Made by a program: the position numbers and the translations under genes. The notes below the pieces were generated by a model. It was not told the DNA's origin. It did not search any database and saw nothing but the letters and a program-made list of their open reading frames with translations. 64,000 nt of DNA from Callorhinchus milii (taxonomy: Eukaryota): assembly GCF_018977255.1 (NCBI RefSeq), contig NW_024704749.1, positions 7,564,001-7,628,000 of the forward strand. The letters run 5' to 3'. How positions within the stretch are numbered: the stretch's first letter is position 1; each line of letters begins with the position of its first letter. This document shows positions 1-63,597 of this stretch, in pieces.

Positions 1-59
1 TATCCCCCTTTCCCTCCCCACCGGAGCCGCCGTTGTCCGGCCGCGGGCTTCCCTCTCGC

Positions 60-490
60 CTCGCCGCCCCCCCGCCCGGAGGCTTGTGGAAGCTTCTGGA
101 AGCCGCCAAAACCCACCCGCACCGCACCGCCCGCAACACCCCCCCCCCACCTCCTCCGTCAAAAAAAAATATAAAGTACCTTCATGACAGTCGTTCGCCG
201 ACCGCGTCCCCAAAGCGCGCGGACATGACAGGAGCCGCCGGCGGAGGCGGCGGCGGCGAGAGGCGGCGGAGGCTCCCGAGCACCGGACACACCGCGCTCT
301 CGGCCCCGTCCCGCCTGTCAATCACCGCTCACAGGGGGCGGGGGAGACGCGCGAGAGCCGCCCACCCATTGGTTAGCCCGGCTGCCAATCACCCCGCAAG
401 CGGGCGTGAGCGCAAGCGGATTGGTGAGCGGATCGTCATGGCAATCACTGCCGCTCCTCCCCATTGGTCAATGCACGTGCCAATCAATCA
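60..490 (-). promoter_or_regulatory. CpG-island promoter and first exon, an inverted paralog of the RNF34 promoter/exon 1 (ATG AAG|GT at 185-178)
   Basis: The reverse complement of 173-243 nearly matches 15179-15250. ccggtgctcgggagcc, the TSS-region motif, the CCAAT array and the HSE also correspond. Confidence 0.8.
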
Positions 491-552
491 ATCAATCAGT
501 CAGTCAGTCAATCAATCAATCAATCAATCAGTCAGTCAGTCAGTCAGTCAGT
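481..552 (+). repeat. (AATC)n/(AGTC)n microsatellite
   Basis: Directly visible. Confidence 0.95.
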
Positions 553-970
553 CGCTGGTGGAGCCCAACCCTCACTGTGTGCTGGAGCCCAAGTGGTCTG
601 AGTGCCACTCCGAGTCTTCGTGGCCACAGGTGGTGGAGCAGTGCCTGTTTGGCAGCACGTCTTGTGGCACTGCAGCGTAGGCAGTGGCTTCGGGAAAATT
701 TGTTTACCCGGTGTTCATTCGAATAATCCTTCCATGTGAAACAGCACTTCATCCCGTTGCCCGGTAGCCTGAAAGCGATTCACGGTATGCGCACGCGGTA
801 TTGCAGCAAAGTGGTGCGACTGTGTAATTTTGTGAGCTCCCAATTGCTTAAGAGCCTTCCCGAAAGGAAGCCAGAAAGGGACGCGAGAAAGGGTTAGAAA
901 CCCAGGACCATCCTCGGCAAGTTCCCAATGACAGCGGTAGGCAAAAACGGGAGTGTGTTCTTTGTATATA

Positions 971-976
971 TTTATT
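971..976 (-). terminator. Probable ANAPC5 polyadenylation signal (AATAAA)
   Basis: tttatt on the + strand, about 180 nt past the ANAPC5 stop. Confidence 0.55.
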
Positions 977-7100: not shown

Positions 7101-10100
7101 TTGATGAAGATTTTGCTTTGAGAGTTTAATACAGAAAGCCACTCACAGGTAAGCCAAGTTGTCCTGCTTTTTTCACTGAGTGTTCAACAAGAATTGTGTT
7201 ATCCGATCCTTTCATCTGGTCGAGTATGTACAGCCAACTCTATTAAAAATGAAAGATCAATAGATGAAGCTGGATACAGCACACATAATAAGAATAATTA
7301 TCATCATCCTTGCATTTAATATAGCGCCTCACCACATCGTTGAGATGTCTCAAATCGTTTCACAGGATAACACTGTAAAGTGGATTAACTGTATTTTGTG
7401 GGAAAAACGCAGCAGCCAGTTTACGTGCAATCTACAACCACGAAGCACTAAATGAATTCAAACAGCACACTTAAAGAGAGAAAGAGTCTGTCTCTGTCAC
7501 CCCATCAACCTTACCAAGCAGTGCTGTAAACACACATGGTCACTGGATTCCTGTGCAATACGTATAGCTTCCTGTAAGGCAAACTGGGCCTGCTCACTAC
7601 AGAAACAATAAGAGAAAAGGCAGTCAGAAGAGCAGAGATGTTCTCTTAATTAATAAGAAGCACATAACTTTCCTAATAAACTAGTATAACAAGAAAAAGC
7701 TGTACAGGGGGGGTCAGCCAGAACTGTACTCCAGCATGTCACTCCCTTCAGAAGAGAGAAGAACATTTCTATTAGATAACTTGAGGCAACAATAATAACA
7801 ATAATCCTTGCATTTGATATAGCACCTTATTACGTCGTTGAGATGTCTCAAAGCACTTCACAGGATATACTGTAAAGTGAATTGACTGTAAATTTTGTGG
7901 GTGAAACAAATCTATAACAATAATCTGGGTACTGTGCAGTTTAAACTGAGCTGCATATGATTCTCACTCCAGAGAATGTACCGGTAAGTAAAACACATAT
8001 TTGATCCTGAGATGCTTACTGGTGGCCAAATCTACAGTTCAGAGCAGCAAGATTGAGTGCTGCATATCGCAGACTTCGTCCAAATCCATCCTCTCCACTG
8101 CTTTTGCTGTCGCTGCCGGTAAGGATTAATCTATCGAAGTAGTGTAGGAGGCTGTGCATGGCACTGAAATAGTCCTGTACACGCAGACTGTTCAGGTAGC
8201 TCAGGTAATGCTGAAACAAACACAAGATTTCAACTCTTGAATTTATGGTCCATGATAGGAATTTAAGTACCTATACAGAAAAAAAAAACAAATGTGTGGT
8301 GAATTTGAATACTCACAGCTTCTGCGAAATCTGGATTGAATTTCAGCAAGTTGTTGAGTTCCTTCTGTAGAGTGGCCGGTGAGAGTGCTTTGTTTTCATT
8401 ATTTTTCAACAGAGAGGCCTGCAAAATTTAACATTCACAATGGTACATAGCAATAGGAGGAGGCCATTCAGCCCCTCGAGCCTGTTCTGCCATTCAATTA
8501 GATCATGGCTGATCTGTACCTCAACTCCAATTGCCTTTTGGGAGAGTGAGTTACAGATTTCCGCTATCCTTTGCATGCGTGAAAAAATGCTTCCTGATTT
8601 CACTTCTAAATGGCCCCTTGTTCTGGATTCCCCCACCAGAGGAAATAGTTTCTCTGCAGTTACCCCTATTAAATCCTTTTATCATTTTAAACACCTCAAT
8701 CAGATCACCCCTCACCCGGAATGACACATGCGTCATTCGTCCAGGGCCAAGCTGGTGCGCATGGAACAATGACATTCGTCTTAGCTTTTAAATCCAGTCT
8801 GAGCGGTGCTTTGTTCTATACTTGTACAAGATTATCACTGTACAGTATTAACCGTACTCTGCAACAGGAGCTTGCGATATGTTCTGTGTGGGTCAAGGAG
8901 AATCAGAACAGATCCATCCAATTTATGTGCTTTAATATCTATTTATTAACCGTAGCTGTAGCCCAAGACTAGATAGGCACTCAACTGCAAGTCTGCTCTA
9001 TACTTCTTCCCACATCTCAGTTCTGCACGGCCACAATTTCCGTTCAGCAAACAATACGTGACTAATCCTTGCAGTGTAGAAACACAGAAATATAAAAACT
9101 TTGTAACAAGAGTAGGTCATTCAGCCCCTCAAGCCTGTTCCGCCATTCTATAAGATCATGACAGATCTCTACCTCAACTCCAATTACCCGCCCATACCCC
9201 TTGATACCCTTACCTAACAAATATCTATGTATCTATCACAGGGGATGTAAAAACTTATCTGCTCAGCAAGTTTTGGACTGGATAGAACGTTTACAGCAGA
9301 GAGGTCCATTTAGCCCATCATGTCTTTTGTGCTGGTTCTAGCTCCCCCACTGGAACCCTCTACTCTAAACCAATTCCCTTTAGCCCTTTGTTATTTTCAC
9401 GTCAGGAGGACATCCCTGAGTCCCAAACCATGAGACGTATGAAATATATCCATGTGCCACTTTGACCAATGCCCACCCAATGTTCCACTCTCTGCCTGCC
9501 CACATCACAACCCTTTACGAAGACACGAGGCAATACTATACCTGTTCAGCGAGAAAATATTCTGCCTGTTTCTGGGATAGAGGCCCTCTGTCAATGACTT
9601 CATCATCCCTGTCAAACAACATCAGAGTCAACATGTTAACCGTGAAAATAGACAATAGGGGACAAAATAGAAATTGAAGATGGCAAACACCTAAACCTAC
9701 TTCTCCCCCCTTTAACCCATTAGCCAGAAATCTTGGTGTTAGTTAACCTACAGCAACTTACACAGGTTCTCACATAGCAGTGAGAGCCGCTCTGCAGGCT
9801 CCATGTACCATGTCCTGCCTGGCCCACCATCAGCAGTCAGGCCTTCAACCTCTCTGCCCCCACCTTTTGGAACTCCGTCCCACAATGCCTTCACCCTGTT
9901 CCCTCCCTTATCTCCTTCAAGGCACGTCTCAAAACCCTCAAAACCCTACTCTTTGACCAGGTCTTCGTTCACTCTCCTACCCCTTCCCTCCACCTCAAAC
10001 TCCCTTCTCGGGTCCAAATCCCTGACTGTCAAGCACCTTGGGATGTTCTCCAGACGTGAAAGGCACTATACAAATGTAATTTGTTGTTGTTGTTTCAAAG

Positions 10101-12344: not shown

Positions 12345-12700
12345 TAATAACAACAATAATAATCCTTGCATTTGATATAGCGCTTTTCACGTCGGGGGAG
12401 GACGTCGTCCCAAAGCGCTTCGCAGAACACACCGTAAAGTGAATCGACTGTGTATGGGTTTGTGGGCGAACGCGGCGGCCGACTGCGCGCAGCGGCGTCC
12501 GATTGAAAACGACCAATTTATTATGGTTTTGGGGGGTGTTTTTTGGGGAGGGGGTTATTATTAGGGCTGTGTGTGTGTGTGTGTGTGTGTGTGGAGTAAG
12601 GGAACCTGCCCGGGGTTTGGCCCCTGACCGGCCTGGGATTGAACCCCGGGGTCTCTCGCCACTCCAGTGCTCTTAACCACTGAGCTGCGGGGACTCCACA
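12345..12700 (-). mobile_element. tRNA-derived SINE with internal (GT)n
   Basis: Family tail at 12345-12480 and head at 12595-12700. Confidence 0.75.
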
Positions 12701-12839
12701 GTCGTGTCACGGCCATAAAGATTTTAGAGCAGTGTTCACGACAAGATTTGGGCTATTGTTTTGGCGCCAAAAGACCCCCTAACAACGACGACGACGACGA
12801 CAACAACAATATAGGCCTGAATGGGAACCTGCGGGACCC

Positions 12840-13380
12840 CGCTCCAGCCTGAGTGCGCCTCAGTCCGCCTTTCGTAACCACGAGGTGACGGGCGACCAGA
12901 GGAAGGGAATGATAGGCCCCTTTTTAAAAGAAAAAAAAAACCCCCACACACACACACAAAAGGATGAAAAAGAAAGCGCCTCCATATTTACCGCCTCTAC
13001 GGCCTGGAGCGACGCACGCACGCACGCACCGCGCACGCACCGCGCACCGCGCGCGCCGCACGCACGCACGTTACCGGCGCAGTCCGATCAATCGATTCAA
13101 AGCACGATCGACGACGACGTCTCGGCCATCCGTTTCCAGGCCAATAGAGGTGGGGGAGGGGAGGAGGAGGAGAGGGTGTGTGGGGGGGGGGAATTGTTTA
13201 GTCGCCATGGTTACGCCTCCCCCCTCCCCATCCCTTGCCACCTGGGGAGCCACAGCCAAGTCTTTTCTCCCTTCTCCAGCACACGGAGGAGACCCGCGCC
13301 GGACCTGCCGCCGTCCGGCCAGCACCGCCCCACCGGCACCAATGGCAGGGAGAGGAATTTAAGAGTGAGAACGGTTGCAA
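12840..13380 (-). promoter_or_regulatory. CpG island, probable ANAPC5 promoter and non-coding exon 1
   Basis: CpG-rich. Minus-strand donor CCG|GTAACG at 13075/13074, CHR-like TTTGAA at 13096-13101, CCAAT at 13141-13145, RFX X-box-like GTCGCCATGGTTAC at 13201-13214. The ATG exon has an upstream acceptor (ttgttttttctgacag, exon edge 11704). Confidence 0.65.
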
Positions 13381-14197
13381 ACCTGTTTAATCAATAATGG
13401 GTTGCTGTAGACCTTTCAGAGTGAGAGACTCCTTTAAGTTAGCTCGGTGTTGATTGCGTTATCAATGGCAAAATGATGCTCACAGTTCATTACAGACGAC
13501 GACGACAACAACAACAACAACAACAAATCGCACGTATATGGCGCTTTTCGTGTTGGGAGGACGTCCCAAGGCATTTCGATTGCATACTGCGTTTGTCAAG
13601 TGGGCAAATCCGACAGCCAATTTGTACGCAGCAAAGTCCCACAAACGAGTCATGAGGGTGTACAACCGATTATTTAAAGGGCTGTCAGCCAAGACACTGG
13701 GAGAAATTCCCTTCTCTTTTCAATGGTATCTTTAACAACCATCTAAACAGGCAGACTTTATTTTATTGTCTCATCTGAAAGGTGGGAGGCGCCACTGACA
13801 AAACCGAGAGGCCTTTGTGTATGGGCCAAGACTATGAGTGCCCTGGCTTTTTGTTTAAGGAGTAATTTTGTTATTTAATAGCACTGTCGTAAAATGAGAA
13901 ATTTAAAACATGACTGTGCTTTAGCGAATATATGGTTAGTTTTGCAGTCCCTTTTTATTTTTGTGCAGATCTAGGATTTTGATGTGCATAGGAGTAGGTG
14001 GAGATGATTCATTGGCATTTGACTTTAGGTATACCCAGTAAAATCTTAAAATTAGATCACCATAAAAACTGATGTTTGCCTCAGTCGCCTTGGCAAATAT
14101 AGATCAGCAGACTGGGATCAGACAGGGATTTGAACCTGCAACCTTCTGGCCTGATCGGTCCAGTGCTGTACCAAACAGTGCCTTTGCCAGCTGAGGC

Positions 14198-14809: not shown

Positions 14810-15640
14810 CACAGTGCGGCGCAAATCCCGCCCCCGACCCCCATCGTCCCGCCCACGTCAAGGGGGAGCGTCATCTTCGGGCCGGCGCTGAGACAATGAT
14901 TGATAACGCGGCTGACCAATGGGAGGGCGGGGGGCGCGGCGGGTCTAGTCCTGATTGACACAGCGATTGACCAATCGGTGGTGGAACACGCCCCTCCCCC
15001 TTTTAATGGCTGATTGGCATCTAGACTGACCAATGGGGAGCTCCGTCGCATGGTCCGCCCACCCTCTGAGCGCTGACTGACAGCCGGGACGGGACGGGCT
15101 GAGCGAGCGAGCGAGCGAGCGCCGCGATCTGACAGGAGTCCCGGTGCTCGGGGAGCCTTTCAGTCTCGTTGCTTACCGGCGGCGGCGGCTCCTGTCATGT
15201 CCGCGCGCTTTGGGGACGCGGCCGGCGGACGACTGTCATGAAGGTACTTTTTTTTTAAAAAAAAGAAAGAGAAGGGGGTCGGTGGGTGGAGAGAAAGGGG
15301 GGAAAAAAAAGGGAGCGCGAGCTCGGCGGGAGAGAGAGGCGCTTCCAGAAGCTTCCAGAAGCCTAACGCGGAGGGCAGGGGTGGGAGCCGCGAGAGAGAG
15401 AGAGAGGAGAGAGACCGCACCCCGGGGGTGGTGGGGCCTCCGGGCACCCGGGGGACGAGGCCTGGGAGGGAGGGAGGGAGGGGATAAAGCCGCCGAGTTT
15501 GACGCCCTGTTCCCGCGGCAGCTTCACAACCCGCCTCCTCCTCCTCCTCGGCCTCAAAGCGCCGGGGTCTGGTTGCTGGCGAGGCCGTGTCGTCAGCGGT
15601 GAAATTGGGGCTGTGACCAGCTCTTGAGGGCGGCCTCTGA
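14810..15640 (+). promoter_or_regulatory. RNF34 CpG-island promoter: CCAAT/ATTG box array (14897-15035), GC boxes, intronic HSE (15342-15361)
   Basis: Alternating tgattg/ccaat boxes; cTTCc-aGAAg-cTTCc-aGAAg is a perfect 4-unit heat-shock element. Confidence 0.75.
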
Positions 15641-18600
15641 CCTCGGGGGTGACCCCCCACACACACACACACCCCCACCCACTCTGAAGGGAACAGATCA
15701 CGTTTTCGTCGACATCGATGCGTTTGATGCAGTTCCTCCTGTGATGGAAACGCCTCAAAGCCCTTCACCTGTCATGTGGGGTGACTTGTTTTGTAAATGG
15801 GGGGGGGAATCTATTTGCTCACATTTTCTGGCCTCAATGTTCCTCTACCCTGGTCACTGTTAGTCATCGGCTGTAGTCCTTTCTGTTAAGGAGAATTATA
15901 ATAATCCTCGCATTTGATATAGCGCCTTATCACGTCATTGAGGCATCTCAAAGCGGTTCGCAGAACTGTATGCTTAAGAGCGGAGTGACTGTTTTGGGTT
16001 TCGGAATCTGCGTTTTCTCGCTCGCTTCCTTCCTGGCCCCGTTGTCGCCTCGCCACGGACGCTCACCCACTGTCCCCCTTGGGATTGTGTGTTTGTGTCG
16101 GATGCGCTCATCGCCCAACTTTGGAACCGACCCTTACCAGTGCCAGTGGATTGCTGGTACACTGCACCGCTGGTGATTGTGCATCTGGGATAGTAGCTGA
16201 TTATTTGACTGGGTGGGTGGGGGGGGGGGGGGGGGGTGATAGTGAGGGTATCAGATCAGAGACTCAACAGGAATTACAGGAGAGAGATCAGGAGTAACAT
16301 TCCAGACCGCTTTCCTTCCCTAATGAAGGGATGCTTCTCCAGTTGTAATTCCTCCTATTGCTGGCTTCAGTTGCAAGCTGCCAACTCAGCACAGATCGGC
16401 AACCTGGCATCCTGCTAGTCTGTATGGCTCATTACCTCACTTGAAAAATGTGATACCTGCCGAGACATCATTGGAAACTTGTTATTCTTTCTGCTGATGG
16501 CTCCCCAGTGTATTCTTTCAGCAAGAAGGGAATATTGTCTTGGTTGTAAATTTTCCATTTCAAGCTGATCTCCATTTGGCTCAGGTGCAGTCTTGGCTTT
16601 TTGTCCTATTGTTCCTTTTTAATTATGGATTGTAATGGCAATTACATTAGAAGGTCTGATGGATAACTTTCCCCTCATATTAAAAGAAAGTCTTCAGGCT
16701 GCAGGCCCTTCCTCTAATATCCCCAAATTAGCTTTTTTTGAAGGTAGATAGTAAAATTGTTCCCAAATAACTTCACCTGTAAACAGTTGCTAGATAGATA
16801 ATAGGTAGTGTAATAATACATTTCAGGAGTCCTGTAGCTCAGTGGTTAGAGCACTGGCCTCGCAAGCGAGAGATCTGGGTTTGATTCCTGGCAGGACGAA
16901 ATCTTGGGCAAATTTCCTTTTTACACACATGATGATAATCTCTCAAGAAAAATAATAATAAAATTGGTCACTTCAATCCACAACTGTTTGTGGGACACTG
17001 CTGTGCACAATTGGCTGCCATGTTTTGTCCACAAATATACAGTCAATTCACATCACAGTATATTCTGTGCAGCGCTTTGAGACGTCTAGAAGACATGAAA
17101 AGCGCTATATCAAATGCAAGGATTATATTACTATTTATATACCCAACATTAACATTAACGTTTCGCACACAAATTACACAATCAATCTATTTTACGGTAT
17201 ATCCTGTGAAGCGCTTTGAGACGTCTCGATGATGCGATAAGGTGCTATATCAAATACAGGGATTATTATTATAAAATGACTTATCCACTGTTCTGGGAAT
17301 CATTTAGTTTGCAGGATTAGGATATTGATGTAAGATGTATCAGTAGTGGGTATCAAATAATTGATGGTAAATAGATATTTGGCTAAATTTAAATGACTAT
17401 GATTTCATTGTACTGTTTTTGCTACATCTCAGATATACAGTGCAATGTTGAATATGAAAAGTAAAGCAACATACAAGTTGAAAGTTATTTGACTTCCCTT
17501 CTCTAAATAATGTTTAAAGGAAAATGGAGTGCTTTCTATATTAAGAACATGACTAAACTGTTTTGACTGCTGGTAAAACCTGCTCATGTTTCGAGACTCC
17601 ACTTACCTCAAAGGAAATTGGGTCCTTGAGTCTGGTCTAAGAGTTGACTGTGAGCCATTCAACCCTGTGAAGGCCCAAAGCCCATAAGTATGCTCTAACA
17701 CCTGGGAGGGATCGTCTTCACTTTCCCAGGGATGTCGGTGCTGGATTGGCCCTCATGTCTGTCTTTAGAGATCACTCTCCTCCTCTAAAGTAAATGACAC
17801 TGTGCTGAGTAGTATGTCCAACCCCGATCATTTGCAGGATGTCAATAATTGAGAATCGTTTAGCAAGTTGAAACATTTGAATATTTTTCCAGTGTAATCC
17901 TGGGATACATTGAATGCAAAGTGTACCTCCAAACTTTGTTTTCCCCCTTTAAGCTTTCTGCTGAGGCCTACTTTGCGTACATTTATATCAGAGAAAGTGC
18001 AACAGCCTTAAATGTTTGCTCCCTGGTTACCTCAGATGACCTCTTTTGTCACTTGTGTATACTAAGACAAAGAAAGTACCTACAATAATGCCTGCATTCC
18101 TTTAATTTCAAGATTGCATTGCAAGACCTGAAAATATTTATTTCTGCAGTTTAGTACAATTGGAATAGATTAGTAGGATTGTAAATAGCCAGTTGTGTTG
18201 GAAAATGTGGAATTGTGCTTTCATTCCCACCATTATCCTTTTCTTCTCCTTCTATTTGTTGCTGCAGTGAGGTAACAGAATTCACCGATGGCTTCTCATT
18301 TCGTTCAACATCGAGTGGTAGACTGTGAAGCATTCTTTTGCAGCAAAGAACACAGTTGAGTAAATGTATGTGAATCTGTTGTGTAGGCAGGAGCATCATC
18401 GATGTGGGCTTCGTGTTGTGGTCTGCTGAATGAAGTAATGGGGACTGGAGCGGTGCGTGGGCAGCAGCCAGGGTTCAGTGGAGCAACGGGGCCATTCAGA
18501 TTCGCTCGTAACGCAGGCTATTCTTCATATCCCTCCCCAACACCAGGAGTTCCTAATCTAGTCTGCAAAAGCTGCGGGCAAGCCTTCTCCGTCTTTAGAA

Positions 18601-21600
18601 AGAAGGTGAGTTTGGTTATCGTTACAAAAGTACTCGTTGAAAAATAAAATTGTCTTTCTGCATTAAGTTGTGGGGCGGGGGGTGGGGGGGGGAGAGAAGA
18701 AGTAGCTTGAGTTGATAGATGGATCTGTCTCTGTAGGTATGGTGAATCTTGATACGGACTATATAAAGACTTCACTGAAAATATTTTTAATATCTCTATT
18801 TGTTCCCTCGCCTCCCCTTTCTGGTGTAATTAAACATTTTAGCAGTTTACTAAACTGGGTATCGGTTTACGCGCACATTGATGATGTGCCAGATGTTTTT
18901 TAAAAAGAAAAAAAACTTAATTGTTTTCAGTTCTTTGTCTAAAAGCACCTGTTGGAATTCTGTGTGGATATTCTCAACTAGATTTATTCATGTTATTCTA
19001 AAATTCAAGCACTTTACAGTTTTGAACGCATTGTCAGCTTTGAGCGTGATTTAAAAAAAAATGCATTTGTTGTTTGAAGTGTGATAACATTAGGGGAAAG
19101 CTGACATACTGTGTGTTACTTAAAGCAATATTTATTGGTGAAAAAGTGAAATAAACAATTTGGGGGAAGTGCTTACCTGGCTTCAATTAACTTAACTCTA
19201 GTTTAATTTTTAACATGAAGACTGGAGTGAAGTACTGTGGAGTACATGGTTTATCAAGGACAAATGCAGTGATTTTACTCTTTTACTAGAGTGGCCAGCA
19301 GTTAGTAATGTTCTTGTAGCTGCAATAACCAGTAATTCTGTATCTGTGTTTCTGCACGTATTTCTCATTTCTATCTGACTTCTTTGTAGCCAGAGACAGT
19401 ATGTACAAGTGAAACAAATTATTACTATTCTTCACAGATACGCAAAAATTACTTTCCCGTAGTTAAACACCACTCATTATATGAGGCATAACCATCAGCA
19501 ATGTAATTCCAGTAAATTTTAAAGAGCCTGGAGAGAATTATGAGGTACTTTTGTACCCTATTTAACCATGCCAGCAACTTCACAGCTCTGAATCCATGCC
19601 AGCAACTTCACAGCTCTGAATCCTCTCCACAAAGGGTGATGGATTAGTCAATAATCCACATTTGAATCAGTTTTCCACGTTTTTGGTTTGGGGCGACTGT
19701 TTGCCTAAAAACGGTCACTGTAATTAACAATTTGCTATAAAGTGCGACACTTTGACATGATAATGTACTAAAAATACAATTTTGCTTTCTTTCTACAACT
19801 ATAAATTTGAATTATGATGAATATAAAACTATGAATCAAGCAACTATTGTTTTAGTAAACTACTTTTATAAAACTCCACTGTCTTTATACTCAAAAGAAT
19901 TGCGGGGAATTGTCTGCTTATTACTTTAATGATTTAGTTGCATTCGAGAATAACTGAGTAATATGAATTTAAGGGATACTTGATATTTACTTGATATACA
20001 TTTATATACTGAAGCTAACTTAGAATAAAGGAAGAGTAACGTTATCAAGTGCCTAAAGAGAACTGTTTCTTCTCGCTTTGCCAGTATGTATGTAAAGACT
20101 GCAAGAAGAATTTCTGTTCGTTCTGCTCAGTACTGCAAGAGAATCTACGAAGATGCTGCACATGTCAGCTGCTGCAACAGACTGCGTTCCAGCGGAGCGA
20201 GTTAATGAAGCTAAAGGTGAAGGATCTGCGTCAATATCTCAGCCTAAGGAACATCTCCACAGACACATGTCGGGAAAAGGAGGACTTGGTAGATCTAGTA
20301 TTGGGCCATTATGGATCGGGTGAGGATAGCATGGACATTGAGAGTATAGACTCCTCGAGATCGCAGAGTTCACAATTACCTACCAATCCTTCAGCATCCC
20401 CAGCCCCACCCTCTCAGGAGACAGCCTCCAGCAGAAGGCCCAGTTCAGGAACTACACAAGTGCAGCAGGTACAGTATTATTATTATTTCCAAATATTATA
20501 AGTTCCTTATTTTCCAAAAATTCTTAAGAGGGATTTTAAATCCCTTTTGTTTTAGGCTGATACTTCTTGATAAGGCGCTGTGTTGAATGCAAGGATTATT
20601 ATTATTATTTTATAATGGATTTTGCTCACTAGGTGTTTGAGAAGCAATTGGTACCAATTCATTCAAATTTCCTTTTTGTGCCTTTCAAACTATACTACTG
20701 TACCATCAGCAGCCAAATGGAGTTTGACTATTCAGCCCTTAAATCGATTGTACATTCAAGCCTATGCAAAATCCGGTGTTCCTGCATCAGTAGCACTCCT
20801 AATAAATTGGCCGTTTTCCCACAATCGCATCAAGTTCTTCACTCTTTTAAGAATTGTCTCAATGCCGTAATGGATGGGATTCCGTCCAGAATGATATCAT
20901 CAAATGGGGCTGAATGAAGAGTTCTCTTCACCTCACATTGATCCAATATGTACAGCGCTATATAAGTGCAAGTTATTGATGTACTTTCTCAGAATGACAA
21001 TTACACTTGCTTTTTTCTGTCAAACTGCACACACAATTTGGAAGCAAATCAGCAATGAGGAAACTAACCCGATGTGGTTTGTGAAAGCTACTGAAGAGAT
21101 GCACACAGCTTGAAGAATCATCTTTCTTATTAATCGTGTTTGTTTCTCGCAGGTAAACGATCCCAGTCCTGACATCCCTCCAAAACGAACACGAGCCTCA
21201 TTGTCGGACCTGTCCAGTATTAACGACATTGAGGAGCTGACTGTACGTCAGCTGAAGGAAATCCTGGCTCGCAATTTTGTCAACTACTCGGGTTGCTGTG
21301 AAAAATGGGAATTGGTGGAACGAGTAAGCAGGTTATACAAAGAGACAGAAGAAAACCGCAAGGCGTGTAAGTCTGCTTTTACAAGCTGAAATGTGTTATG
21401 ATGAGAAGTACATTTTTTAATTCGTTTTTGTTTTTTTAAAAAAAAATTATTTATTTTCCAGTGGAAAACGGAAACAACCCAGAGGCAGCGACTGGTAAGT
21501 TCCCGGCCATTTTGCTGTTAGTTACAACAACAACAACAACAAGATTCCATTTATAGAGCGCCTTTCACGTCGGGAGGACGTCCCAAGGCGCTGTTACAAG

Positions 21601-22163
21601 TTACAGTAGGAGTGAGAGTAAAGCTGCTTCACCCCCAAGAGACAGACAGTTCACTTTAAGCATTTTGAGACGTCTTAAAGACCTGATAAGGCGCAATATC
21701 AAATGCAAAGATTATTATATTATAAGTTCCTTATTTTCCCAAAATTCTTAAGAGGGATTTTAAATCCCTTTCATTTTAGGCTGATATTTCTTGATAAGGC
21801 GCTGTGTCGAATGCAAGGATTATTATTATTTTATAATTAAATTAAAATGCACTTAAAAATAAAGGGCGACAAGTTTACACATGATTATAATGAAGACCGC
21901 AGACATTACCTGGAGGAGTGTCTGATTGAGAGCCTTGTTGATGCTCCGCTTGATGTTAGCCGGCCATTTCCCTTTCAGAAGGAGAGAAGATGCAGTTGGG
22001 TAGCGACGAGAACCTGTGCCGGATCTGCATGGACTCAGCGATCGACTGCGTGCTCCTGGAGTGCGGACACATGGTCACCTGCACCAAGTGCGGCAAGAGA
22101 ATGAGCGAGTGCCCCATTTGCCGGCAGTATGTGGTTCGGGCAGTGCACGTCTTCAAGTCTTAA
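15238..22163 (+). CDS. RNF34: E3 ubiquitin-protein ligase RNF34 (FYVE-like, SAP-like and RING domains), 346 aa
   Basis: MK|[27 protein letters not shown]...[48 protein letters not shown]. Exons 15238-15243, 18387-18605, 20085-20468, 21153-21366, 21462-21494, 21979-22163. Sum 1041 nt, in frame. The N-terminus distinguishes it from RFFL. Confidence 0.95.
16826..17130 (+). mobile_element. tRNA-derived SINE with well-preserved A/B boxes; second tail fragment at 17160-17272
   Basis: ggagtcctgTAGCTCAGTGGttagagcactggcctcgcaagcgagagatctgGGTTTGATTCC, followed by the family body and tail. Confidence 0.85.
19566..19622 (+). repeat. Perfect ~28-bp tandem duplication
   Basis: ccatgccagcaacttcacagctctgaat x2. 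Confidence 0.9.
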
Positions 22164-22831
22164 GAACCGAGAGCAGGTCGCATTGCGCATTACCAGAGAT
22201 CTGGCTTTTAACTGATCAGGATGCTTGATAAACCCATGGATTAAAACGAGTCAATGTTATCAGTAACGCCGGTTAATTTTTTTTTATCATTCGGACATTT
22301 GATTTTTTTTGCAGGGAAAAAAAAATGATTTTTAGTCTTACTAACAATTTATCATAGTTGCTTATTGACTGGAAGCCTTACAGAAATCAGTGCACAACAA
22401 AGCTACTTACATTATTAACCTTAAGGTGCATAAAAAACGATCCAAGTTAAATCTGTTTTGACCACTAGAATCGACAGCTAGAACCTGCAACTCAAACGGA
22501 CACATTGCAAAAAAAAGTTGGAAGAAAATTCTATTTTGAACTTTTCGTATAATTTTTATAAGTCTCCTGGAATTTTACTTTTTCAAGGATTAAGTTGGTC
22601 AGTAGCTTAGTCATTGTGCTGTGTATATGTGTGTGTGTGTGCACACATGTGTGCGTGTGAGAGAGAAATCAGCTTTTGACAGAAAGGAGACCCCGTTTGT
22701 GTGACTTCAAGACGTTATCAGTATGTTCGGCTAACAGTTGTATCCATCACAATTTACTCCCTCGCTCCCAACTTACCTTTTTGTATATCTGGAGGTTTTG
22801 AAATTCATTTTATTATTTCTGCCATTTGACT

Positions 22832-22837
22832 AATAAA
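22832..22837 (+). terminator. Probable RNF34 polyA signal (second copy near 35818-35823)
   Basis: AATAAA about 670 nt after the stop codon. Confidence 0.5.
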
Positions 22838-24616
22838 TGAATTGGATTAAATGGAAGCTTAAGTCTTTGCAACAAAAGTGAATTGACGGACACTAAAATC
22901 AGTTCTCAACCTGCTTACCCCTTCCCAATTGTTTACTGGTTTTAATTCACTTGTACCTTTCACTTTTAATTTGGACCCAGGTATTGATGGAAGGTTATAC
23001 ATACAATAAGTGGGAAGGAATAATAATAATAATAAAAAATTGGTCACTTCAATCTACGACTGTTTGTGGGACACTGCTGTGCGCAATTGGCTGCCACATT
23101 TGCCAGCAAAATATAAACTCAATTCACTTTACAGTATATTCTGTGCAGTGCTTTGAGACATCTCAAAGATCTGATAAGGTGCTATATTCAAATGCAAGGA
23201 TTATTTTTATTATAAGAAGAGGCTTTACAAATCAAAAAATCAGACTCATGCTGGTCTGGGTATCAATGGAGCCTATTCAGAATGGACCCAGTATAGCCTG
23301 TGCCAGCAGAACATGGGTCTCGTCAAGAAACTCAATTCAGCAAAATCATTTTTATAATTTTCCTTCCATTTCTTTAAAGCAAGTAAATGTTTGCCTTTTC
23401 TTAATGATACACATCTGTAATTGGACAGAAACTGTAACCTGTTCACTCAATACCTTTAGAGAACTTCCAACACCTACCTGCCAACCCCTCTACGCATAGT
23501 AAAGACCCTACTGCAAAAAGAGAAGAGTTTCTCCCAGTGCTCTGCCCATCAGTGCCTCAAATGTCTATCGAACCACTAAGCTTCGCTCTCAGTACCTGTG
23601 AAGTGCTTTTGACTCGTTGCGAGGCAATAAGGTGCTATCAAAATGGCAGTTCTTTCATTTCGAATAACACTCTCCCATTAGATGTAAAAATAAGAGGGCA
23701 CGCATCGCTGAAGACAAAAGTTTTATACAAAGTCAGCAATGACAAAATGGCAACAGCAATTAAGTGGTAAACCAACATCAGTCACCTAACAGTATTGTGG
23801 CTGCTTCAATGCCCCTTGTTTTGAGAGGCATGCAATGATGGCACATACAAACATCACACAGATCAACCCACATGGTCATTGAAACATGTGTAATTGTACA
23901 GAGATTAAACCACCAGCGAGCGAACGACTGATGGGAAGGAATCTGATATTGTAAGAATGGGAGAATTTGGAAATATTGATTTTTTTTCACAGTACTGTAC
24001 TCTCAATAAAGTAATTTCTGTACAAAAATATTTCTGGATAATGTACGATGGTTAAGAGTGTAGCAAAACAGAACATTATTTATAACCAGGTTGAAATGAC
24101 TCCCAATATACGGTCGGATATGTCCACAATTTTTTTTTTTCGTTTTTAAGACTGCGGCCGGTTTTAAAAAGGAACAAAAAATAAAAATTTACAATGTACA
24201 TGCCCCTAATTGTAATTCGTGCATGGAAATGTTGCGTTCAATCTGTTATTTTCTTCTCCCTCTCGCTTTTCCCTCCGTGTTCGGTCAAACGCTCGTGAAT
24301 GGGTGTGGGTTTCTTCATTTTATATATATATATATATATATAATATATATATACAGACACACACACACATTTAAAACATAAAGTTTTGTACTTCGGAGTG
24401 ATGTTTTTAAGCCAGTAGAAAAGTTTCTGGTTCAAAGTAAGCAGCTTCTGTTGCTGAACAGTGTTTTCAATCTCTCCGCTCCACCAGCCCAATCCAGGCT
24501 TTTCCTGTGTTTGAAGCGGAAGCTGGGAGTAATTAAATGACAGGGAGCAGAACGTCCGATGTCCCTCCTTCACGGACACAAGTCTCCAAGTGTCCCTTCA
24601 ACTGGGTTTCCTGCAG

Positions 24617-27600
24617 TTAACTAAGTTTCTGTAATAGTCTCTCCTCTGACAGGCTGAACTGAACACTGACAGACATCTCTGCTATGAACTTTTCACAGCT
24701 TCTTTACTTATCTGCTTGCAATAGCGGAGGTCTATCCGACAGACGTTGCCACAACGTTTGAAGTAGGCCAGGCATTGGTCAGTGACTCGATTGCAAACTG
24801 GAGAAAAAGGGACATTTTCAGTCGCTGTGCGTAACCTTTTGCACTGAAATTACACTTCAGCCGTTCACACTGATATAAACTTGTTGCGCTCTCTCCTCTC
24901 CCCTCTCTCCTTCCCACCAACCATGCAGTCAAATAGCCCCCTGATCCCACTCATTGCCAAATTTAAACAGGCTCATTCGTTCTCAGGTGTCGGTAGCACT
25001 TTTGCTTCGGAGTCAGAATGTGGGTTCAAGCCAGTTCCCGATGTGCACTTTTGAGGTTTCAGTCTGGGTGTCTGAGGAGGCATTACACTGAGATCCCTTT
25101 TGCTTGTTCAGGTGCATTCCCCGCCCCCCCCCAACATTTCCAAATAGTCAGAAAACTCAGGTTCTTTGAGACATTGATGCAATAGCCACTCTTCTCAAAT
25201 GTAATGACTTATTATTCCTCAATTTCATGCCCGGGTGGGGGGTGGGGGGAAGGACAGGCTGGGTCATTGGTAATGGCCATTGACTTGAATTTGGAGACTA
25301 CAGAAATAACTGGACAGATATTAAGTGGGACAGAACAGAACAATATCCACAGGAGTCGTTTTTAACAGGATATCATCTCAAATGGACTGTAATCACATTG
25401 CTAGCATGCAAGGCGGTTTTAACTCCGCTAACCTCCGTGCGTTCCAATAGGAATGGTTTGATCCTAGCGCGCGTTTCTGACCTGATAGGTTGATCTCCGT
25501 CAAGGAATCCCTGGTGCTGCTGCCCACCGCGGTGAGCAAGTTCATCGACTGGTCGGTTAGGTGATTGCAGTAACTGAGATCCAGTTTGGCGAGCAGCGGC
25601 ATGTGGCGGATTATAAGCCGGAGTGTCGAGTCCGTGACATCCAGCCCGCCCAGGCGCAGGTCCATCACGTTACGTAGCTTGCTACGATTGTCGATCTGGC
25701 CTTCATAGTCGAGACGGGCAACAGTTTCAGGCAGCAATAAGACTGATATTTCCATCTACCAACCCATCCAATCAACCTCCAAAAGGATTCCTTGCGCCCG
25801 TCTATTCTCATAAAAACCCCAACCCAAACTCTCCACATTCCCCCACCCCCTTCAAGATTCACTTGGGTTCTGTCAACCTTAATGTTTCCTTATTTGTACT
25901 TGCTAGTGCCAGTGTGCCCATAAAGTTATAGCTAATCTCCAATGAAAGACCACAGGTTGATTCTTCATTAAACATTAGTTCAGGAAGCCTTGCAAAATGG
26001 ACCCAGATTGCCCGGCGCCATTCCTGGGTCTAACCCTGCAGGTGGACGTCCACAGCAGTTTCTTACCTGGTCTGTTGTCAGTTGGAGGGGAGAGCAAATC
26101 TCTCATCTGAGCGTCTTTCAGTCCTTCCACCCATCTGAGGTCGAGGATCCTGAGCAAAGGGCAACTGGAACTACAGAGGGCAGAGATCGCTGCCCAGGAA
26201 CAGCCTGAGACAACCAAGTCCTTCAGACCTAAAGGAAGGAGATGAAAGAGATTGTGAATGTGAGTAACCAATGGCCAAGTGGAGACTGCCCAAAAACCAC
26301 TATAGGAGGTTGGGCCTTTAGCCTTTTTCAATCTCCCTCTGGAACCCATTCCAGAGCCTCTCCCTTGCCTCCTTCAAGGCCCGTCTCAAGAATCTCCTCT
26401 TCAACAGTGCCATTGGTTACTTTCCCACCACCATCCCCTTCCCCATGCCCTCCACCCCTCTCTGATTCCAACCGGCAGCTCGGGTGCAAACCCTTTAATG
26501 TCCAGGGCCTTGGGACGCCCTCGTATGACAATATCAAGGACGACATGAAAGAATTTATATAGCGCCACTCACACAGGGCAGAGTCTCAGAGCTATATAAA
26601 TACAATGTGTTGTTGTAAAAGCAGTAGCAATACCTTGTATTGGCAACACCACCAACCTCCATTCCCAATAACACTTACCTGGCAGCCGGTTGATGAGCCA
26701 GGTGAGCTGTTTTTTCGAGATGTTTGTCCAGCTCAGGTCCAGGGTGACGGGTTGCCTCCTGATAATGCCACTCAGCATGAGGGGTGTAATCGATTTACAG
26801 CGATTCAAATCGATATTCGTCCACAACCTCTTGTCACAGCACCTGGGAAGCCAACGTGCAATTATTAAGCAAACACTTCGTAACACCTAGATCTCCCTTT
26901 GTGTAAGAGTAGTGATTAACCTCAGGCCTCCCTCACATCCTTAGACTTAGTAATAATAATCCTTACGTTTGATTTGCGGCTTATCACGTCACTGAGACGT
27001 CTCAAAGCGCTACTGTAAAGTGAATTGGCTGTGTATTTTGTGGCAGTCAATTGCACACAGCAGTGTCCCACAGAGTCGTGGATTGAGTGACATTTTATTT
27101 TGAGGGATTATTACCCCCGAAAAGCGATCCCCCAATCCACGAACAACTGGGTTCTTACTTACTGTTGGGTAAACAGAGGTGTGTGTGTGTGTGTGTGGAG
27201 TAAGGAAATTTGCCAAAGGTTTCGCCCTGCCCAGGAATTGAATCCAGGTCCTCTTGCCTGCGAGGCGAGCACGCTAACCACTACGCTATGGGATTGCAAC
27301 CTGCGACTCCCTGGCCTAAGCTGCCCTAGGCTGTGATGTTACCCACGGGGCCATTGGGGAGGAGAAAGCTTCCACCATGTTATTTTCTCCCTGTTGTAAG
27401 GTGCAGCATTACTCACACCTACCAGGGACAACACGGAGAGAGAACCTTTCTCTCAGGGGTCATCAGTGCAATGTGGAGGCAGCTGGAAGGGAGCGGTCAC
27501 CAACAATACTCTTCAGCTACTCAGGGGATGACTCTCAACTCCTCAATTGGTTTCAATTGTTGCACACACCTCCTACACACTCCAATTATAACAAATCCTT

Positions 27601-30025
27601 GCATTTGATATGGGCTGCTAATAGGAAATGACATCTCAAAAGCTCTTCACGAGCGTAGTAGCAGCGGTCTGTTAGGACGAGAGCAAAGAGGCTTACTACT
27701 ACGCTCTAACAAGTGAATGGGGTGGATTTTGTGGGTGTAAGAGCACGGGTGAGGTTGCTGTAGTTGTAAGTGTAGGTGTCAATTTTGTGGTGTTTCTGGG
27801 ACAGTGCAGGGCGCAAACTGGCTGCCGCGTTTCACCAGCAAAATTCACAGTCACTGCACTTTACAGTATATTCTGTGAAGCGCTTTCGGAGACGTCTCAA
27901 GGACGTGATAAAGAGCTATACCAAATCCAACGATTAGTATTATTATATATACACACACACAACACCTTGCATTTATATAGTGTCCTTCAAGTGGGGTAGC
28001 GCCCCTGGAGCGCTAAAAATATCATCATAAATAAATATTAGCGCTTATATATAATTATTGTCAACATCATCATCATCGTCGTCAACATCATTATTATGAT
28101 TATTATTAATAAGGACAGACGAGAGGAACACAAGGCAGACACACAGCTTCACATCTCCCTGCCACTACTGGGGGAGGGGGGGGGGGGTGAGAGAGAGAGA
28201 CTCCATTGAACACCCACCATCTGTTCCAGGTTTTGCAGACCCTCATACAGACGCACAGGTCCCTGCGGCTGAGGGAGCCGAAGACAGCCATCCACACCTC
28301 CCTCTGAATCACGTGGTCCTCCCCGTCCACCAGGGGGAGCGAGTCCGGGGGCGGGCTGACGGGCGGGGGCCTGATGACGTGACGCTCCATGGGGATGAAC
28401 TTGGTGGGCGAGATGGAGGGTGGGGGGCGGGCGATGACCCTGGGAGCTCGGCGTAAGCCACCCCCTTCCCCCCCGCCCAGCGGGTGCCGTAGCCTGGCTG
28501 CCCCGTTCAGCCCTTTGCCGAGCCGGTGCAGTTTGTCACCGCTGGCCGGCTGGCGCTTGGGCTTCTCCGCTTTCTCCACGTCCCCTTCGGTCTTGATGGG
28601 CTGTTGGTTCTCGTTGGCCAGGCTGCTCTCCGTCTTGTGGATCTCCAGGTTGAGCTCTTTGCTCAACTCTTTGCTCAGCTCCTTGTTGTGAAGGCGTTTC
28701 TTCCTCTTCTCTCTCTGCCGCTCGCTCCTCTCCCTGTCCTTCTCCCTGTCCTTCTCCCTGTCCTTCTCCCTGTCCCTCTCCCTGTCCCTCTCCTTGTCCT
28801 TGGACGGGTCGGTCTCGGAGCTGGGACCGGCTCGAGGGGAGCTGGAGCGAGATTGGTCGCTCTCCTTGGCTCGTTGCGGAGTGAGAGGTACTGAGCCGAG
28901 CTGGGGATCGTCCTCAGGCTCCTGCTTGATGTTACGCAGCGACTTGATGGGGGTGCAGTGGTCTTCGTTCGGGAGTAAAGACCGTTTCTATTCGAGTGGG
29001 GACAAACGAAAAAGAATTTACAACAACAACTTTTCACCCCAGTTTCTGTCCTGACCGACAAAATCCTCCAACAAAATAAATTGGGGTCACTCACTTCCTG
29101 GCCGTTCTGAGGGATGTCGCTGTGTGCAAATTGGCTGCTACGTTCGTACATTGATAATAATGATAATAATAACAATCCTTGCATTCGATAAGGCACCTTA
29201 TCAGGTCATTGAGACGTCACAAAGCACCGCAAAAAAATAAAATAATAATCCTTGCATGATATAGCCTTTTCACGTCGAGACGTCCAAAGCGCTTCACGAA
29301 TATATGTATAATTGACTGTAATTTTGAAGACCATTTTTTGTTTTGTGGGGCGAAAATTACACTTTGGCGAATGCAAATCCTTGCTGAAACTGCTCTTTGA
29401 GACGGTCCTCAGCCGTGTACGTGGAAAGGCGCTAAACTAAATGGAAGGATTTGCGTTCATACAGCAGCTTTCACGATGGGAGGATGCCTCAAAGTGCTTC
29501 ACACAACTAATAATACGCCCCGGGGGTAAAACAGTAAGATTTTTTTTGAAGGGGAAAAAAATAAAGATTATTGTTAAGTAAAAACGAATACCTTTTTCCT
29601 CATGAGTTTCTCCTCCTTCCCAATCTTGAGCTGCGGGGAAAAGAAACAGGTTCTAGGTTACCATTAACCCATAGAGATTATTCCAATTGTACGTTCACAA
29701 GATCGAGAGAGATAGAGATAGAAAGGAAGCACCTTAAAATCCACATCCTTTGCTTGACAATGGCAGAGCATGTCTCCAAGCCGGAATAACAATTATTAAT
29801 AATAATAATAATAATCCTTGCATTCAATACAGCTCCTTATCACATTTTGTAGAGTCTCAGAGGGCTTCACAGAATATACGGTAAAGTGAATTGACTGTGT
29901 ATTTTGTGGGCGAAAAGATATAATTCAGCCTCGCTCGAGAAACAGACCATGTTGTAAACCCAGCCCCCGATTTAGAGACGGCAACAAGTCACCTTTTTCC
30001 TAACGATGGGCTCAGAGAGCCTGTC
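24617..30025 (-). pseudogene. KDM2B: Partial KDM2B copy 1 (3' exons only, promoterless, 1-nt frameshift in last exon)
   Basis: Exons 29993-30025 (truncated), 29592-29630, 28218-28987, 26679-26842, 26067-26228, 25482-25700, 24617-24797 (181 nt versus 182 in the intact gene; cacagcttc versus cacagccttc). May be an assembly duplicate. Confidence 0.75.
26950..27298 (-). mobile_element. tRNA-derived SINE (copies at ~33445-33790 and ~39945-40283)
   Basis: Family tail and head, triplicated with segment B. Confidence 0.85.
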
Positions 30026-33000
30026 TCCCAGTGCTCTGCCCATCAGTGCCTCAAATGTCTATCGAACCACTAAGCTTCGCTCTCAGTACCTGTGAAGTGC
30101 TTTTGACTCGTTGCGAGGCAATAAGGTGCTATCAAAATGGCAGTTCTTTCATTTCGAATAACACTCTCCCATTAGATGTAAAAATAAGAGGGCACGCATC
30201 GCTGAAGACAAAAGTTTTATACAAAGTCAGCAATGACAAAATGGCAACAGCAATTAAGTGGTAAACCAACATCAGTCACCTAACAGTATTGTGGCTGCTT
30301 CAATGCCCCTTGTTTTGAGAGGCATGCAATGATGGCACATACAAACATCACACAGATCAACCCACATGGTCATTGAAACATGTGTAATTGTACAGAGATT
30401 AAACCACCAGCGAGCGAACGACTGATGGGAAGGAAGGAATCTGATATTGTAAGAATGGGAGAATTTGGAAATATTGATTTTTTTTCACAGTACTGTACTC
30501 TCAATAAAGTAATTTCTGTACAAAAATATTTCTGGATAATGTACGATGGTTAAGAGTGTAGCAAAACAGAACATTATTTATAACCAGGTTGAAATGACTC
30601 CCAATATACGGTCGGATATGTCCACAATTTTTTTTTTTCGTTTTTAAGACTGCGGCCGGTTTTAAAAAGGAACAAAAAATAAAAATTTACAATGTACATG
30701 CCCCTAATTGTAATTCGTGCATGGAAATGTTGCGTTCAATCTGTTATTTTCTTCTCCCTCTCGCTTTTCCCTCCGTGTTCGGTCAAACGCTCGTGAATGG
30801 GTGTGGGTTTCTTCATTTTATATATATATATATATATATAATATATATATACAGACACACACACACATTTAAAACATAAAGTTTTGTACTTCGGAGTGAT
30901 GTTTTTAAGCCAGTAGAAAAGTTTCTGGTTCAAAGTAAGCAGCTTCTGTTGCTGAACAGTGTTTTCAATCTCTCCGCTCCACCAGCCCAATCCAGGCTTT
31001 TCCTGTGTTTGAAGCGGAAGCTGGGAGTAATTAAATGACAGGGAGCAGAACGTCCGATGTCCCTCCTTCACGGACACAAGTCTCCAAGTGTCCCTTCAAC
31101 TGGGTTTCCTGCAGTTAACTAAGTTTCTGTAATAGTCTCTCCTCTGACAGGCTGAACTGAACACTGACAGACATCTCTGCTATGAACTTTTCACAGCCTT
31201 CTTTACTTATCTGCTTGCAATAGCGGAGGTCTATCCGACAGACGTTGCCACAACGTTTGAAGTAGGCCAGGCATTGGTCAGTGACTCGATTGCAAACTGG
31301 AGAAAAAGGGACATTTTCAGTCGCTGTGCGTAACCTTTTGCACTGAAATTACACTTCAGCCGTTCACACTGATATAAACTTGTTGCGCTCTCTCCTCTCC
31401 CCTCTCTCCTTCCCACCAACCATGCAGTCAAATAGCCCCCTGATCCCACTCATTGCCAAATTTAAACAGGCTCATTCGTTCTCAGGTGTCGGTAGCACTT
31501 TTGCTTCGGAGTCAGAATGTGGGTTCAAGCCAGTTCCCGATGTGCACTTTTGAGGTTTCAGTCTGGGTGTCTGAGGAGGCATTACACTGAGATCCCTTTT
31601 GCTTGTTCAGGTGCATTCCCCGCCCCCCCCCAACATTTCCAAATAGTCAGAAAACTCAGGTTCTTTGAGACATTGATGCAATAGCCACTCTTCTCAAATG
31701 TAATGACTTATTATTCCTCAATTTCATGCCCGGGTGGGGGTGGGGGGAAGGACAGGCTGGGTCATTGGTAATGGCCATTGACTTGAATTTGGAGACTACA
31801 GAAATAACTGGACAGATATTAAGTGGGACAGAACAGAACAATATCCACAGGAGTCGTTTTTAACAGGATATCATCTCAAATGGACTGTAATCACATTGCT
31901 AGCATGCAAGGCGGTTTTAACTCCGCTAACCTCCGTGCGTTCCAATAGGAATGGTTTGATCCTAGCGCGCGTTTCTGACCTGATAGGTTGATCTCCGTCA
32001 AGGAATCCCTGGTGCTGCTGCCCACCGCGGTGAGCAAGTTCATCGACTGGTCGGTTAGGTGATTGCAGTAACTGAGATCCAGTTTGGCGAGCAGCGGCAT
32101 GTGGCGGATTATAAGCCGGAGTGTCGAGTCCGTGACATCCAGCCCGCCCAGGCGCAGGTCCATCACGTTACGTAGCTTGCTACGATTGTCGATCTGGCCT
32201 TCATAGTCGAGACGGGCAACAGTTTCAGGCAGCAATAAGACTGATATTTCCATCTACCAACCCATCCAATCAACCTCCAAAAGGATTCCTTGCGCCCGTC
32301 TATTCTCATAAAAACCCCAACCCAAACTCTCCACATTCCCCCACCCCCTTCAAGATTCACTTGGGTTCCGTCAACCTTAATGTTTCCTTATTTGTACTTG
32401 CTAGTGCCAGTGCGCCCATAAAGTTATAGCTAATCTCCAATGAAAGACCACAGGTTGATTCTTCATTAAACATCAGTTCAGGAAGCCTTGCAAAATGGAC
32501 CCAGATTGCCCGGCGCCATTCCTGGGTCTAACCCTGCAGGTGGACGTCCACAGCAGTTTCTTACCTGGTCTGTTGTCAGTTGGAGGGGAGAGCAAATCTC
32601 TCATCTGAGCGTCTTTCAGTCCTTCCACCCATCTGAGGTCGAGGATCCTGAGCAAAGGGCAACTGGAACTACAGAGGGCAGAGATCGCTGCCAGGAACAG
32701 CCTGAGACAACCAAGTCCTTCAGACCTAAAGGAAGGAGATGAAAGAGATTGTGAATGTGAGTAACCAATGGCCAAGTGGAGACTGCCCAAAAACCACTAT
32801 AGGAGGTTGGGCCTTTAGCCTTTTTCAATCTCCCTCTGGAACCCATTCCAAGCCTCTCCCTTGCCTCCTTCAAGGCCCGTCTCAAGAATCTCCTCTTCAA
32901 CAGTGCCATTGGTTACTTTCCCACCACCATCCCCTTCCCCATGCCCTCCACCCCTCTCTGATTCCAACCGGCAGCTCGGGTGCAAACCCTTTAATGTCCA

Positions 33001-34014: not shown

Positions 34015-34141
34015 AACTGCACACACAATTTGGAAGCAAATCAGCAATGAGGAAACTAACCCGATGTGGTTTGTGAAAGCTACTGAAGAGATGCACACAG
34101 CTTGAAGAATCTTTCTTATTAATCGTGTTTGTTTCTCGCAG

Positions 34142-37607: not shown

Positions 37608-63597
<25,990 letters not shown>

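Follow-up and report, generated by a model that had tools for sequence, protein, structure and literature searches.

A copy of the 5′ end of RNF34, comprising the promoter, exon 1 and the start of intron 1 (about 1.1 kb), lies inverted between the end of ANAPC5 and CAMKK2 in Callorhinchus milii, is spliced to CAMKK2, and likely serves as its main promoter. The duplication, its extent, the GT–AG join and the reading frame were observed directly in the 64,000-nucleotide stretch of DNA analysed here (the window) and in the sequence to its left. The older, native promoter of CAMKK2 was likely lost, because only ~490 bp are left between the ANAPC5 AATAAA and the copy (hereafter the twin), and the duplication event is probably lineage-restricted. 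Positions left of the window are given as negative numbers, with 0 being the base before position 1; the scale L024 equals the window position plus 8000. The features of both copies are collected in Table 1.

Table 1. Features of the twin, of CAMKK2 and of the RNF34 source (window positions; negative values lie left of the window)
Feature	Position	Strand	Remark
AATAAA after the ANAPC5 stop codon (1159–1157)	971..976	-	~490 bp from the first composite
(TGAC)n(TGAT)n microsatellite	481..556	-	adjoins composite 1; absent from RNF34
Twin composite 1: DECA-like TGATTGGC + 11 bp + CCAAT	463..486	-	
Twin composite 2: TGATTGCC + 15 bp + intact CCAAT	420..447	-	degenerate
Twin composite 3: TGATTGGC + 11 bp + CCAAT	368..391	-	
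GC box	341		just upstream of the twin DECA
Perfect PBX/PREP DECA motif TGATTGACAG	315..324	-	near the presumed TSS; motif according to the available part of PMC6023610
CAMKK2 non-coding exon 1, copy of RNF34 exon 1	180..340	-	3′ end from the joint; 5′ end (340) nominal
uORF1, 14 codons, in both copies	182..226	-	stop overlaps the copied ATG
Copied ATG-AAG (RNF34 Met-Lys start)	180..185	-	opens a 13-codon uORF out of the CAMKK2 frame
GT donor of the 2,802-base CAMKK2 intron 1	174..179	-	joins exon 2 at L024:5377–4843
Intronic HSE, twin	83..102	-	three of its four inverted nGAAn units perfect
Start of the intron block, ~80% identity	1..11	-	from alignment; duplicate runs on left to about L024:7410 (-590)
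Third shared CTGTCATG in the twin intron	-310		left of the window
SINE tail at the twin distal end	~-590		same junction as in RNF34
CAMKK2 main ATG	-2675	-	within exon 2
RNF34 source promoter with units of DECA-like + 11 bp + CCAAT at 14897, 14952 and 15011	14897..15034	+	
RNF34 DECA (15074–15083) to end of exon 1	15074..15243	+	exon 1 ends in coding ATG-AAG (15238–15243); donor 15244
Intronic HSE, RNF34	15342..15361	+	four perfect units
RNF34 intron-1 part of the duplicated segment	15476..15964	+	SINE tail at its end
RNF34 exon 2	18387..18605	+	in frame with ATG-AAG

Extent of the inverted duplicate

The left edge of the window had been described in a sequence-only reading as an inverted twin of the RNF34 5′ end. 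When the reverse complement of window 1–500 was aligned element by element with window 14890–15480, all the elements listed in that reading were found in place, including the TSS-region decamer, the ATG-AAG followed by the donor (179–178) and the intronic heat-shock element (HSE) in both copies. The near-identical exon end of 70 nt corresponds to a core in which 65 of 68 bases are identical (twin 241–174 vs. RNF34 15182–15249). The six CCAAT/ATTG boxes are likewise present, but the strict form CCAAT/ATTGG is found in only five of six in the twin and four of six in RNF34. The claim that the spacers have diverged holds for the proximal intron and the upstream 5′ UTR, but not for a 167-base intron block, which is ~80% identical between the copies.

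The homology reaches ~590 bp left of the window edge, still within intron 1. The longest identical stretch between the copies, which bears on a possible flipping of ANAPC5 between them, measures only ~40 bases. Measured against 200 shuffles, the z-scores were 12 for the promoter, 30 for the core, 24 for the first intron block and 12 for the distal intron, with the upstream 5′ UTR (2.8) and the proximal intron spacers (1.8 and 1.0) at or near the shuffle level. A DNA search of the genome with window 100–480 returned three matches, i.e., itself, RNF34 exon 1 (94% over 77 bases, E 2e-24) and a weak, GC-rich piece of 45 bases on another contig. The RNF34 intron block 15476–15660 matches only one further place in the genome, the twin (75%, E 4e-20). 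Because the homology takes in intron sequence, the duplication occurred at the DNA level; it takes in promoter, exon 1 and intron sequence, as in promoter and first-exon capture by 3′-truncated duplication. The identity of more than 90% that defines a segmental duplication in the strict sense (PMC6169893) is not found over the copy, since the best intron block is at ~80% and 96% is reached only in the 68-base core.

A same-strand SINE end lies within 20 bases of both distal junctions, which is expected by chance in ~1% of cases; the two SINEs are not mutual best matches (ranks 14 and 18 of 135). On the upstream side, the SINE remnant at 860–720 ranks only 12 of 77 against the upstream SINE of RNF34 and was therefore left out of the duplicate. 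The route of duplication was perhaps template switching with a SINE at one end.

The gene to the left is CAMKK2

The sequence-only reading had left two possibilities, a second RNF34-like gene or a captured promoter, and had proposed TBLASTN searches with both proteins. The search with CAMKK2 found its exons to the left on the minus strand. The first exon to the left, which is exon 2 and the first coding exon of CAMKK2, at -2623 to -3157 (L024:5377–4843), encodes a protein piece 100% identical to P0002 (CAMKK2 of Callorhinchus milii according to its source), and the remaining exons follow on the same strand to -19460. By contrast, a search with the five RNF34 exons gave no match better than E 0.10 across 200 kb on that side. 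A genome-wide search with the RNF34 protein matched this locus, its near-identical repeat at 34–35 kb, a paralog on contig C10, which we take to be RFFL, and four weak RING matches; the genome holds one RNF34 locus plus RFFL. A second RNF34-like gene is thus refuted, and the capture of the promoter by CAMKK2 is supported, the donor at 179 being spliced to the first coding exon of CAMKK2. Among the 39 genome matches listed (79 of 330 candidates scored), CAMKK2 exon 2 appears a single time and no intronless CAMKK2 copy is present.

Farther left, past CAMKK2, a P2X receptor gene is found on the opposite strand. The gene order here, P2RX–CAMKK2–ANAPC5–RNF34–KDM2B, is the human order, the strands of the human block being assumed by us. 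The same order is given by a human gene list in the available part of PMC11867633.

Splicing from the twin to CAMKK2 exon 2

Contigs of four sequencing runs were placed on L024:4700–8470. In runs X3 and X1, a joint from 5376 to 8179 in L024 skips 2,802 bases and ends in CT..AC on the plus strand, which is a GT–AG intron on the minus strand from window 179 to -2622. The join is thus listed in two of the four runs, both from study P1 and as contigs only, and in each of the two a single contig covers exon 2 and carries it. In X5 and X6, which belong to other studies, the join was not among the joints displayed; other CAMKK2 first exons are possible, given 184 joints beyond those displayed. Exon 2 is present in 14 of the 15 runs listed, none of which is RNA on record, their RNA status being guessed. 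The sequence-only reading had expected the donor at 179 to join a phase-0 exon; the join is seen, but the exon gives no in-frame continuation.

The short side of the join measures 53 letters, one of which is ambiguous and fits either side. Since the twin and RNF34 exons are nearly identical and the contig could carry the RNF34 allele, an allele check was run by simulation with k=31, according to which a contig should break 52 bases ahead of the donor if it carries the twin allele, but only 26 bases ahead if it carries that of RNF34. The observed contig break fits the twin allele, and no substituted letters are listed in the joined exon. Because no intronless CAMKK2 copy is among the 39 matches, spliced RNA is the most plausible reading of the joined form, i.e., a transcript that bridges into the exons of the neighbouring gene in the manner of promoter capture (two of four runs, RNA status guessed). 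A further joint in X1, from 5854 into 8179, has non-canonical ends and a side of 22 letters, and is probably repeat noise. Window 354–470 has no contig cover in the four runs. The contigs also carry an A>G difference from the assembly at L024 5181 in CAMKK2 exon 2 (X3 and X1) and a 2-base insertion at L024 8259 in the twin exon 1 (X3). RNF34 exon 2 (18387) and CAMKK2 exon 2 (L024 5377) both show GCAG after TAG, resembling a tandem acceptor.

The leader and the direction of copying

The acceptor used leaves 52 bases, including a stop, ahead of the CAMKK2 ATG, which rules out an in-frame Met-Lys extension of CAMKK2; the protein is unchanged. The spliced leader contains three chained uORFs of 14, 13 and 3 codons, and the stops of uORF1 and uORF2 each overlap the next ATG. 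Two of the three uORF starts derive from RNF34 exon 1. The CAMKK2 main ATG has an A at -3, and its context is good. No new ORF of the kind that marks a chimeric duplicate or a partial duplicate with recruitment was found, the copied ATG being out of frame and CAMKK2 exon 2 occurring only once among the matches. Both differences between the copies in uORF1 change an amino acid, so that the peptide is not what is kept.

The RNF34 protein begins with Met-Lys in 81 of the 120 homologs listed (of 629), among them sharks, rays, teleosts, a bird and a mammal; 80 were identified by pattern, and P0150, which the pattern missed, was added. The other 39 are alternative or partial starts. None of the 120 CAMKK2 homologs listed (of 465) begins with Met-Lys, and all eight chondrichthyan CAMKK2 proteins printed start with MSSCV. 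Since jawed vertebrates use ATG-AAG as the coding start of RNF34 and the copied codons here are out of frame, we infer that the copying ran from RNF34 to CAMKK2.

Promoter elements of the two copies

The six boxes are better understood as three pairs, each made up of a TALE-like site and a CCAAT box with 11 bp between them. In RNF34, a TGATTG-type 8-mer stands exactly 11 bases before each of the three CCAAT boxes (14916, 14971 and 15030), and in the twin the spacing is kept in two of three units (CCAAT at 467 and 372), with four extra bases in the middle one (424). For PBX/PREP, NF-Y and Sp2, the site geometry GAnnGAC-11 bp-CCAAT is described in the available part of a preprint (bioRxiv 10.64898/2026.02.16.706105). 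The units found here resemble this composite in their 11-bp spacing and in having a perfect DECA near the presumed TSS, and differ from it in that only one of six, the middle unit of RNF34, has the strict GAnnGAC form (RNF34 1/3, twin 0/3). With a relaxed form of our own (TGAnnG-type + 11 bp + CCAAT), the counts are 3/3 in RNF34 and 2/3 in the twin, which none of 500 shuffles reaches. Genome-wide, TGATTGRY-11-CCAAT occurs at 461 sites, vs. 160 with a 14-base gap and 59 in the reversed arrangement.

Each copy also contains four to five TGACAG sites, a number that, together with the DECA, was reached by 0 of 500 shuffles (both motifs as defined in the available part of PMC6023610). Both copies have GC boxes and no TATA. 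TGATTGGC is also an inverted CCAAT box, and the two intact units of the twin, which read TGATTGGC, may be paired NF-Y sites instead. TALE binding at the DECA-like units is therefore best treated as a lead, not a result. The microsatellite beside composite 1 contains words resembling TALE half-sites where RNF34 has only a short TGATTGAT, and it could be a length-variable tuning element. Elsewhere in the genome, two triple DECA-CCAAT arrays with identical units lie 5.6 kb from each other (G000:C1:136320986-136326848) and make up another duplicated promoter-like block.

A heat-shock element consists of at least three contiguous inverted nGAAn units. Such an element is present in the first intron of both copies and was reached by 2 of 500 and 0 of 500 shuffles. 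Perfect three-unit HSEs number only five in 264 kb, and one of this type lies ~120 bp before CAMKK2 exon 2 (L004 ~7495–7507; -2505 to -2493). Another three-unit HSE was observed in a CpG island before the first coding exon of CAMKK1 (L034 5235–5247; G000:C10:955235-955247), an island without homology to the module. The CAMKK genes may share heat-shock input independently.

Constraint, CpG retention and age

The earlier claim of motif-level constraint is borne out in one respect, as 53–56 of 61 bases are identical in motifs vs. 62–74 of 131 in spacers (Fisher p<5e-7; motifs defined on RNF34 alone, four gap settings, alignments that anchor on the motifs). However, constraint on RNF34 alone would produce a comparable contrast at a neutral divergence of ~20%, where the 10 mismatches among the 149 bases of motifs, core and HSE give p=0.11, and it is rejected only from 27% upward (p=0.007). 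One-sided constraint on RNF34 may explain much of the motif-over-spacer contrast, and the conservation of the motifs does not prove selection on the twin. The retention of CpGs is better, though indirect, evidence that the twin stayed active. Its CpG obs/exp is 1.0 vs. 0.54, and of the 51 RNF34 CpGs that could be aligned, the twin retains 38 while 5 have decayed to TG/CA. The twin is the only CpG island between the ANAPC5 end and CAMKK2 exon 2. A conserved RNA structure in the core was rejected, since folding was no better than in shuffles (z -0.36 to 0.83).

The description of the twin as an old duplicate stands in a relative sense only, in that the best intron block shows 0.22–0.25 substitutions per site, like the local SINE family (104 copies, median identity 78%). 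This divergence suggests an origin well after the genome duplications, perhaps within chimaeras; two metagenome scans for outgroup DNA gave no match.

Surroundings of the locus

The gene between the copies, which we take to be ANAPC5 (the name given in the sequence-only reading), does sit between two outward-facing sister copies, as had been claimed, and has its own CpG island at ~12.4–13.5 kb. This island (12400–13500) has a CCAAT box and lies ~1.5 kb from the RNF34 promoter; it also holds words that are presumably YY1-like. The first coding exon of ANAPC5 is near 11680. RNF34 and KDM2B have their 3′ ends repeated with 99.0–99.6% identity (21020–29249 vs. 34012–42231; units 23530–27523 vs. 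30024–34014 vs. 36517–40511), which reflects either a tandem duplication of very recent date or an artefact of the assembly. At G000:C10:0.96-1.31 Mb, matches to CAMKK1-like, RFFL-like and P2X sequences share one contig, the paralogous block of the CAMKK2/RNF34 locus; one P2X exon match (C10 964072-964254, minus) lies between CAMKK1 exon matches.

Alternative explanations

The twin could instead be a minor or tissue-restricted first exon, with the native CAMKK2 promoter elsewhere, e.g., at a non-CpG site in intron 1 or by read-through from ANAPC5. The detection of the join in two of four runs of one study, with most joints beyond those displayed, and the separate HSE before exon 2 would fit such an arrangement, but it is improbable given that no other CpG island lies between the ANAPC5 end and exon 2, that the single contig over exon 2 carries the join in both X3 and X1, and that ANAPC5 has its own AATAAA. 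An origin of the module at CAMKK2 with later copying to RNF34, or convergence of two NF-Y/TALE promoters, is very improbable. DECA-CCAAT units are indeed a common promoter grammar in the genome, but colinear intron homology cannot be convergent, and the Met-Lys codons open the RNF34 reading frame throughout jawed vertebrates, yet lie out of frame in CAMKK2. Moreover, no homology to the module was found in the 40 kb upstream of RFFL or the 60 kb upstream of CAMKK1, where the weak matches (3 and 5) all fall in a single short piece of the RNF34 segment, at its distal end, so that an ancestral module in the paralogs was rejected. The intact donor and ATG-AAG and the decay of the proximal spacers to shuffle level would suit either a dead relic or the first part of a further RNF34-like gene. 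Either is hardly credible beside the lack of RNF34 exons to the left, the single RNF34 locus, the retained CpGs and, if the runs are RNA, the splicing of the donor to CAMKK2.

The capture of the promoter by CAMKK2 is compatible with a further process, gene conversion between the inverted copies, which rather than selection could have kept the 68-base core. Its 3 mismatches are few against a baseline of 20–25% (p 2e-4 to 7e-6, the region having been picked after seeing it), the uORF1 peptide is not conserved, and the core has no unusual RNA fold. On the other hand, the core includes the RNF34 start codon, the donor and two TGACAG sites, and with RNF34 frozen, so few mismatches in 68 bases would be nothing unusual at a divergence of 20% (p=0.08). 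Conversion is thus unlikely, though by no means negligible.

Proposed explanation and comparison with known systems

In the explanation we favour, an inverted copy of the RNF34 promoter, exon 1 and intron start would have been placed before CAMKK2, in place of its native promoter. NF-Y and PBX/PREP, perhaps with Sp2 as a bridge, would hold the island open and initiate transcription without a TATA box, as they would at RNF34, and HSF1 would bind the intronic HSE, making both genes stress-inducible. Of the three chained uORFs, the middle one opens with the RNF34 start codon; together they are predicted to dampen or gate translation, with the main ATG of CAMKK2 downstream. CAMKK2 would thus come under RNF34-type control, possibly including heat shock. 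The fuller account, in which the promoter and exon 1 of CAMKK2 were completely replaced in the chimaera lineage, bringing NF-Y/TALE/HSF1 control and a uORF brake that were kept by selection, is tentative, with slightly less than an even chance.

Promoter capture is a known class. According to the available part of PMC6169893, GTF2IP1/4 use a promoter and first exon derived from GATSL2, 3′-truncated duplicates fuse to neighbours, and a retained promoter usually brings the expression pattern of its ancestor. The twin most resembles the GTF2IP1/4 case, in that a copied promoter and first exon are spliced into the exons of another gene, as in those truncated duplicates. In contrast to the cases described there, which are young (>90% identity) and whose recipients are truncated duplicates, the twin is ~20–25% diverged, the recipient is a single-copy, full-length CAMKK2 ortholog, and a coding start has become a uORF start. 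Like the partial duplicate with recruitment of Katju 2012 (PMC3449122, available part), a partial gene copy is joined to sequence at the new site; unlike the duplicates described there, no new ORF arises, CAMKK2 is not duplicated and the outcome is regulatory. The human CAMKK2 5′ leader also carries upstream AUGs, according to the available part of PMC5799362, and here two of the three such starts come from RNF34 exon 1.

Implications

The case at CAMKK2 appears to be new, as far as titles and the beginnings of abstracts indicate, among which no literature on this RNF34/CAMKK2/ANAPC5 case was found (most subscription journals lie outside this search); the genome annotation may already draw the twin exon as camkk2 5′ UTR without noting its origin. 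Known promoter captures are mostly rescues of young, broken duplicates, whereas here an old, conserved kinase appears to use the promoter of its neighbour. If true, this would be a natural promoter-swap experiment on the unchanged protein of a single-copy, pan-vertebrate signalling kinase. Two unrelated genes with sister promoters at the same locus would allow a clean test of the share of the promoter in expression, and the pair of copies would footprint which NF-Y/TALE/HSE promoter elements persist. It would also be a case of a coding start codon reused as a uORF. Callorhinchus milii evolves slowly and serves as a proxy for the ancestor of jawed vertebrates, and the expression of CAMKK2 in this species may be derived, not ancestral.
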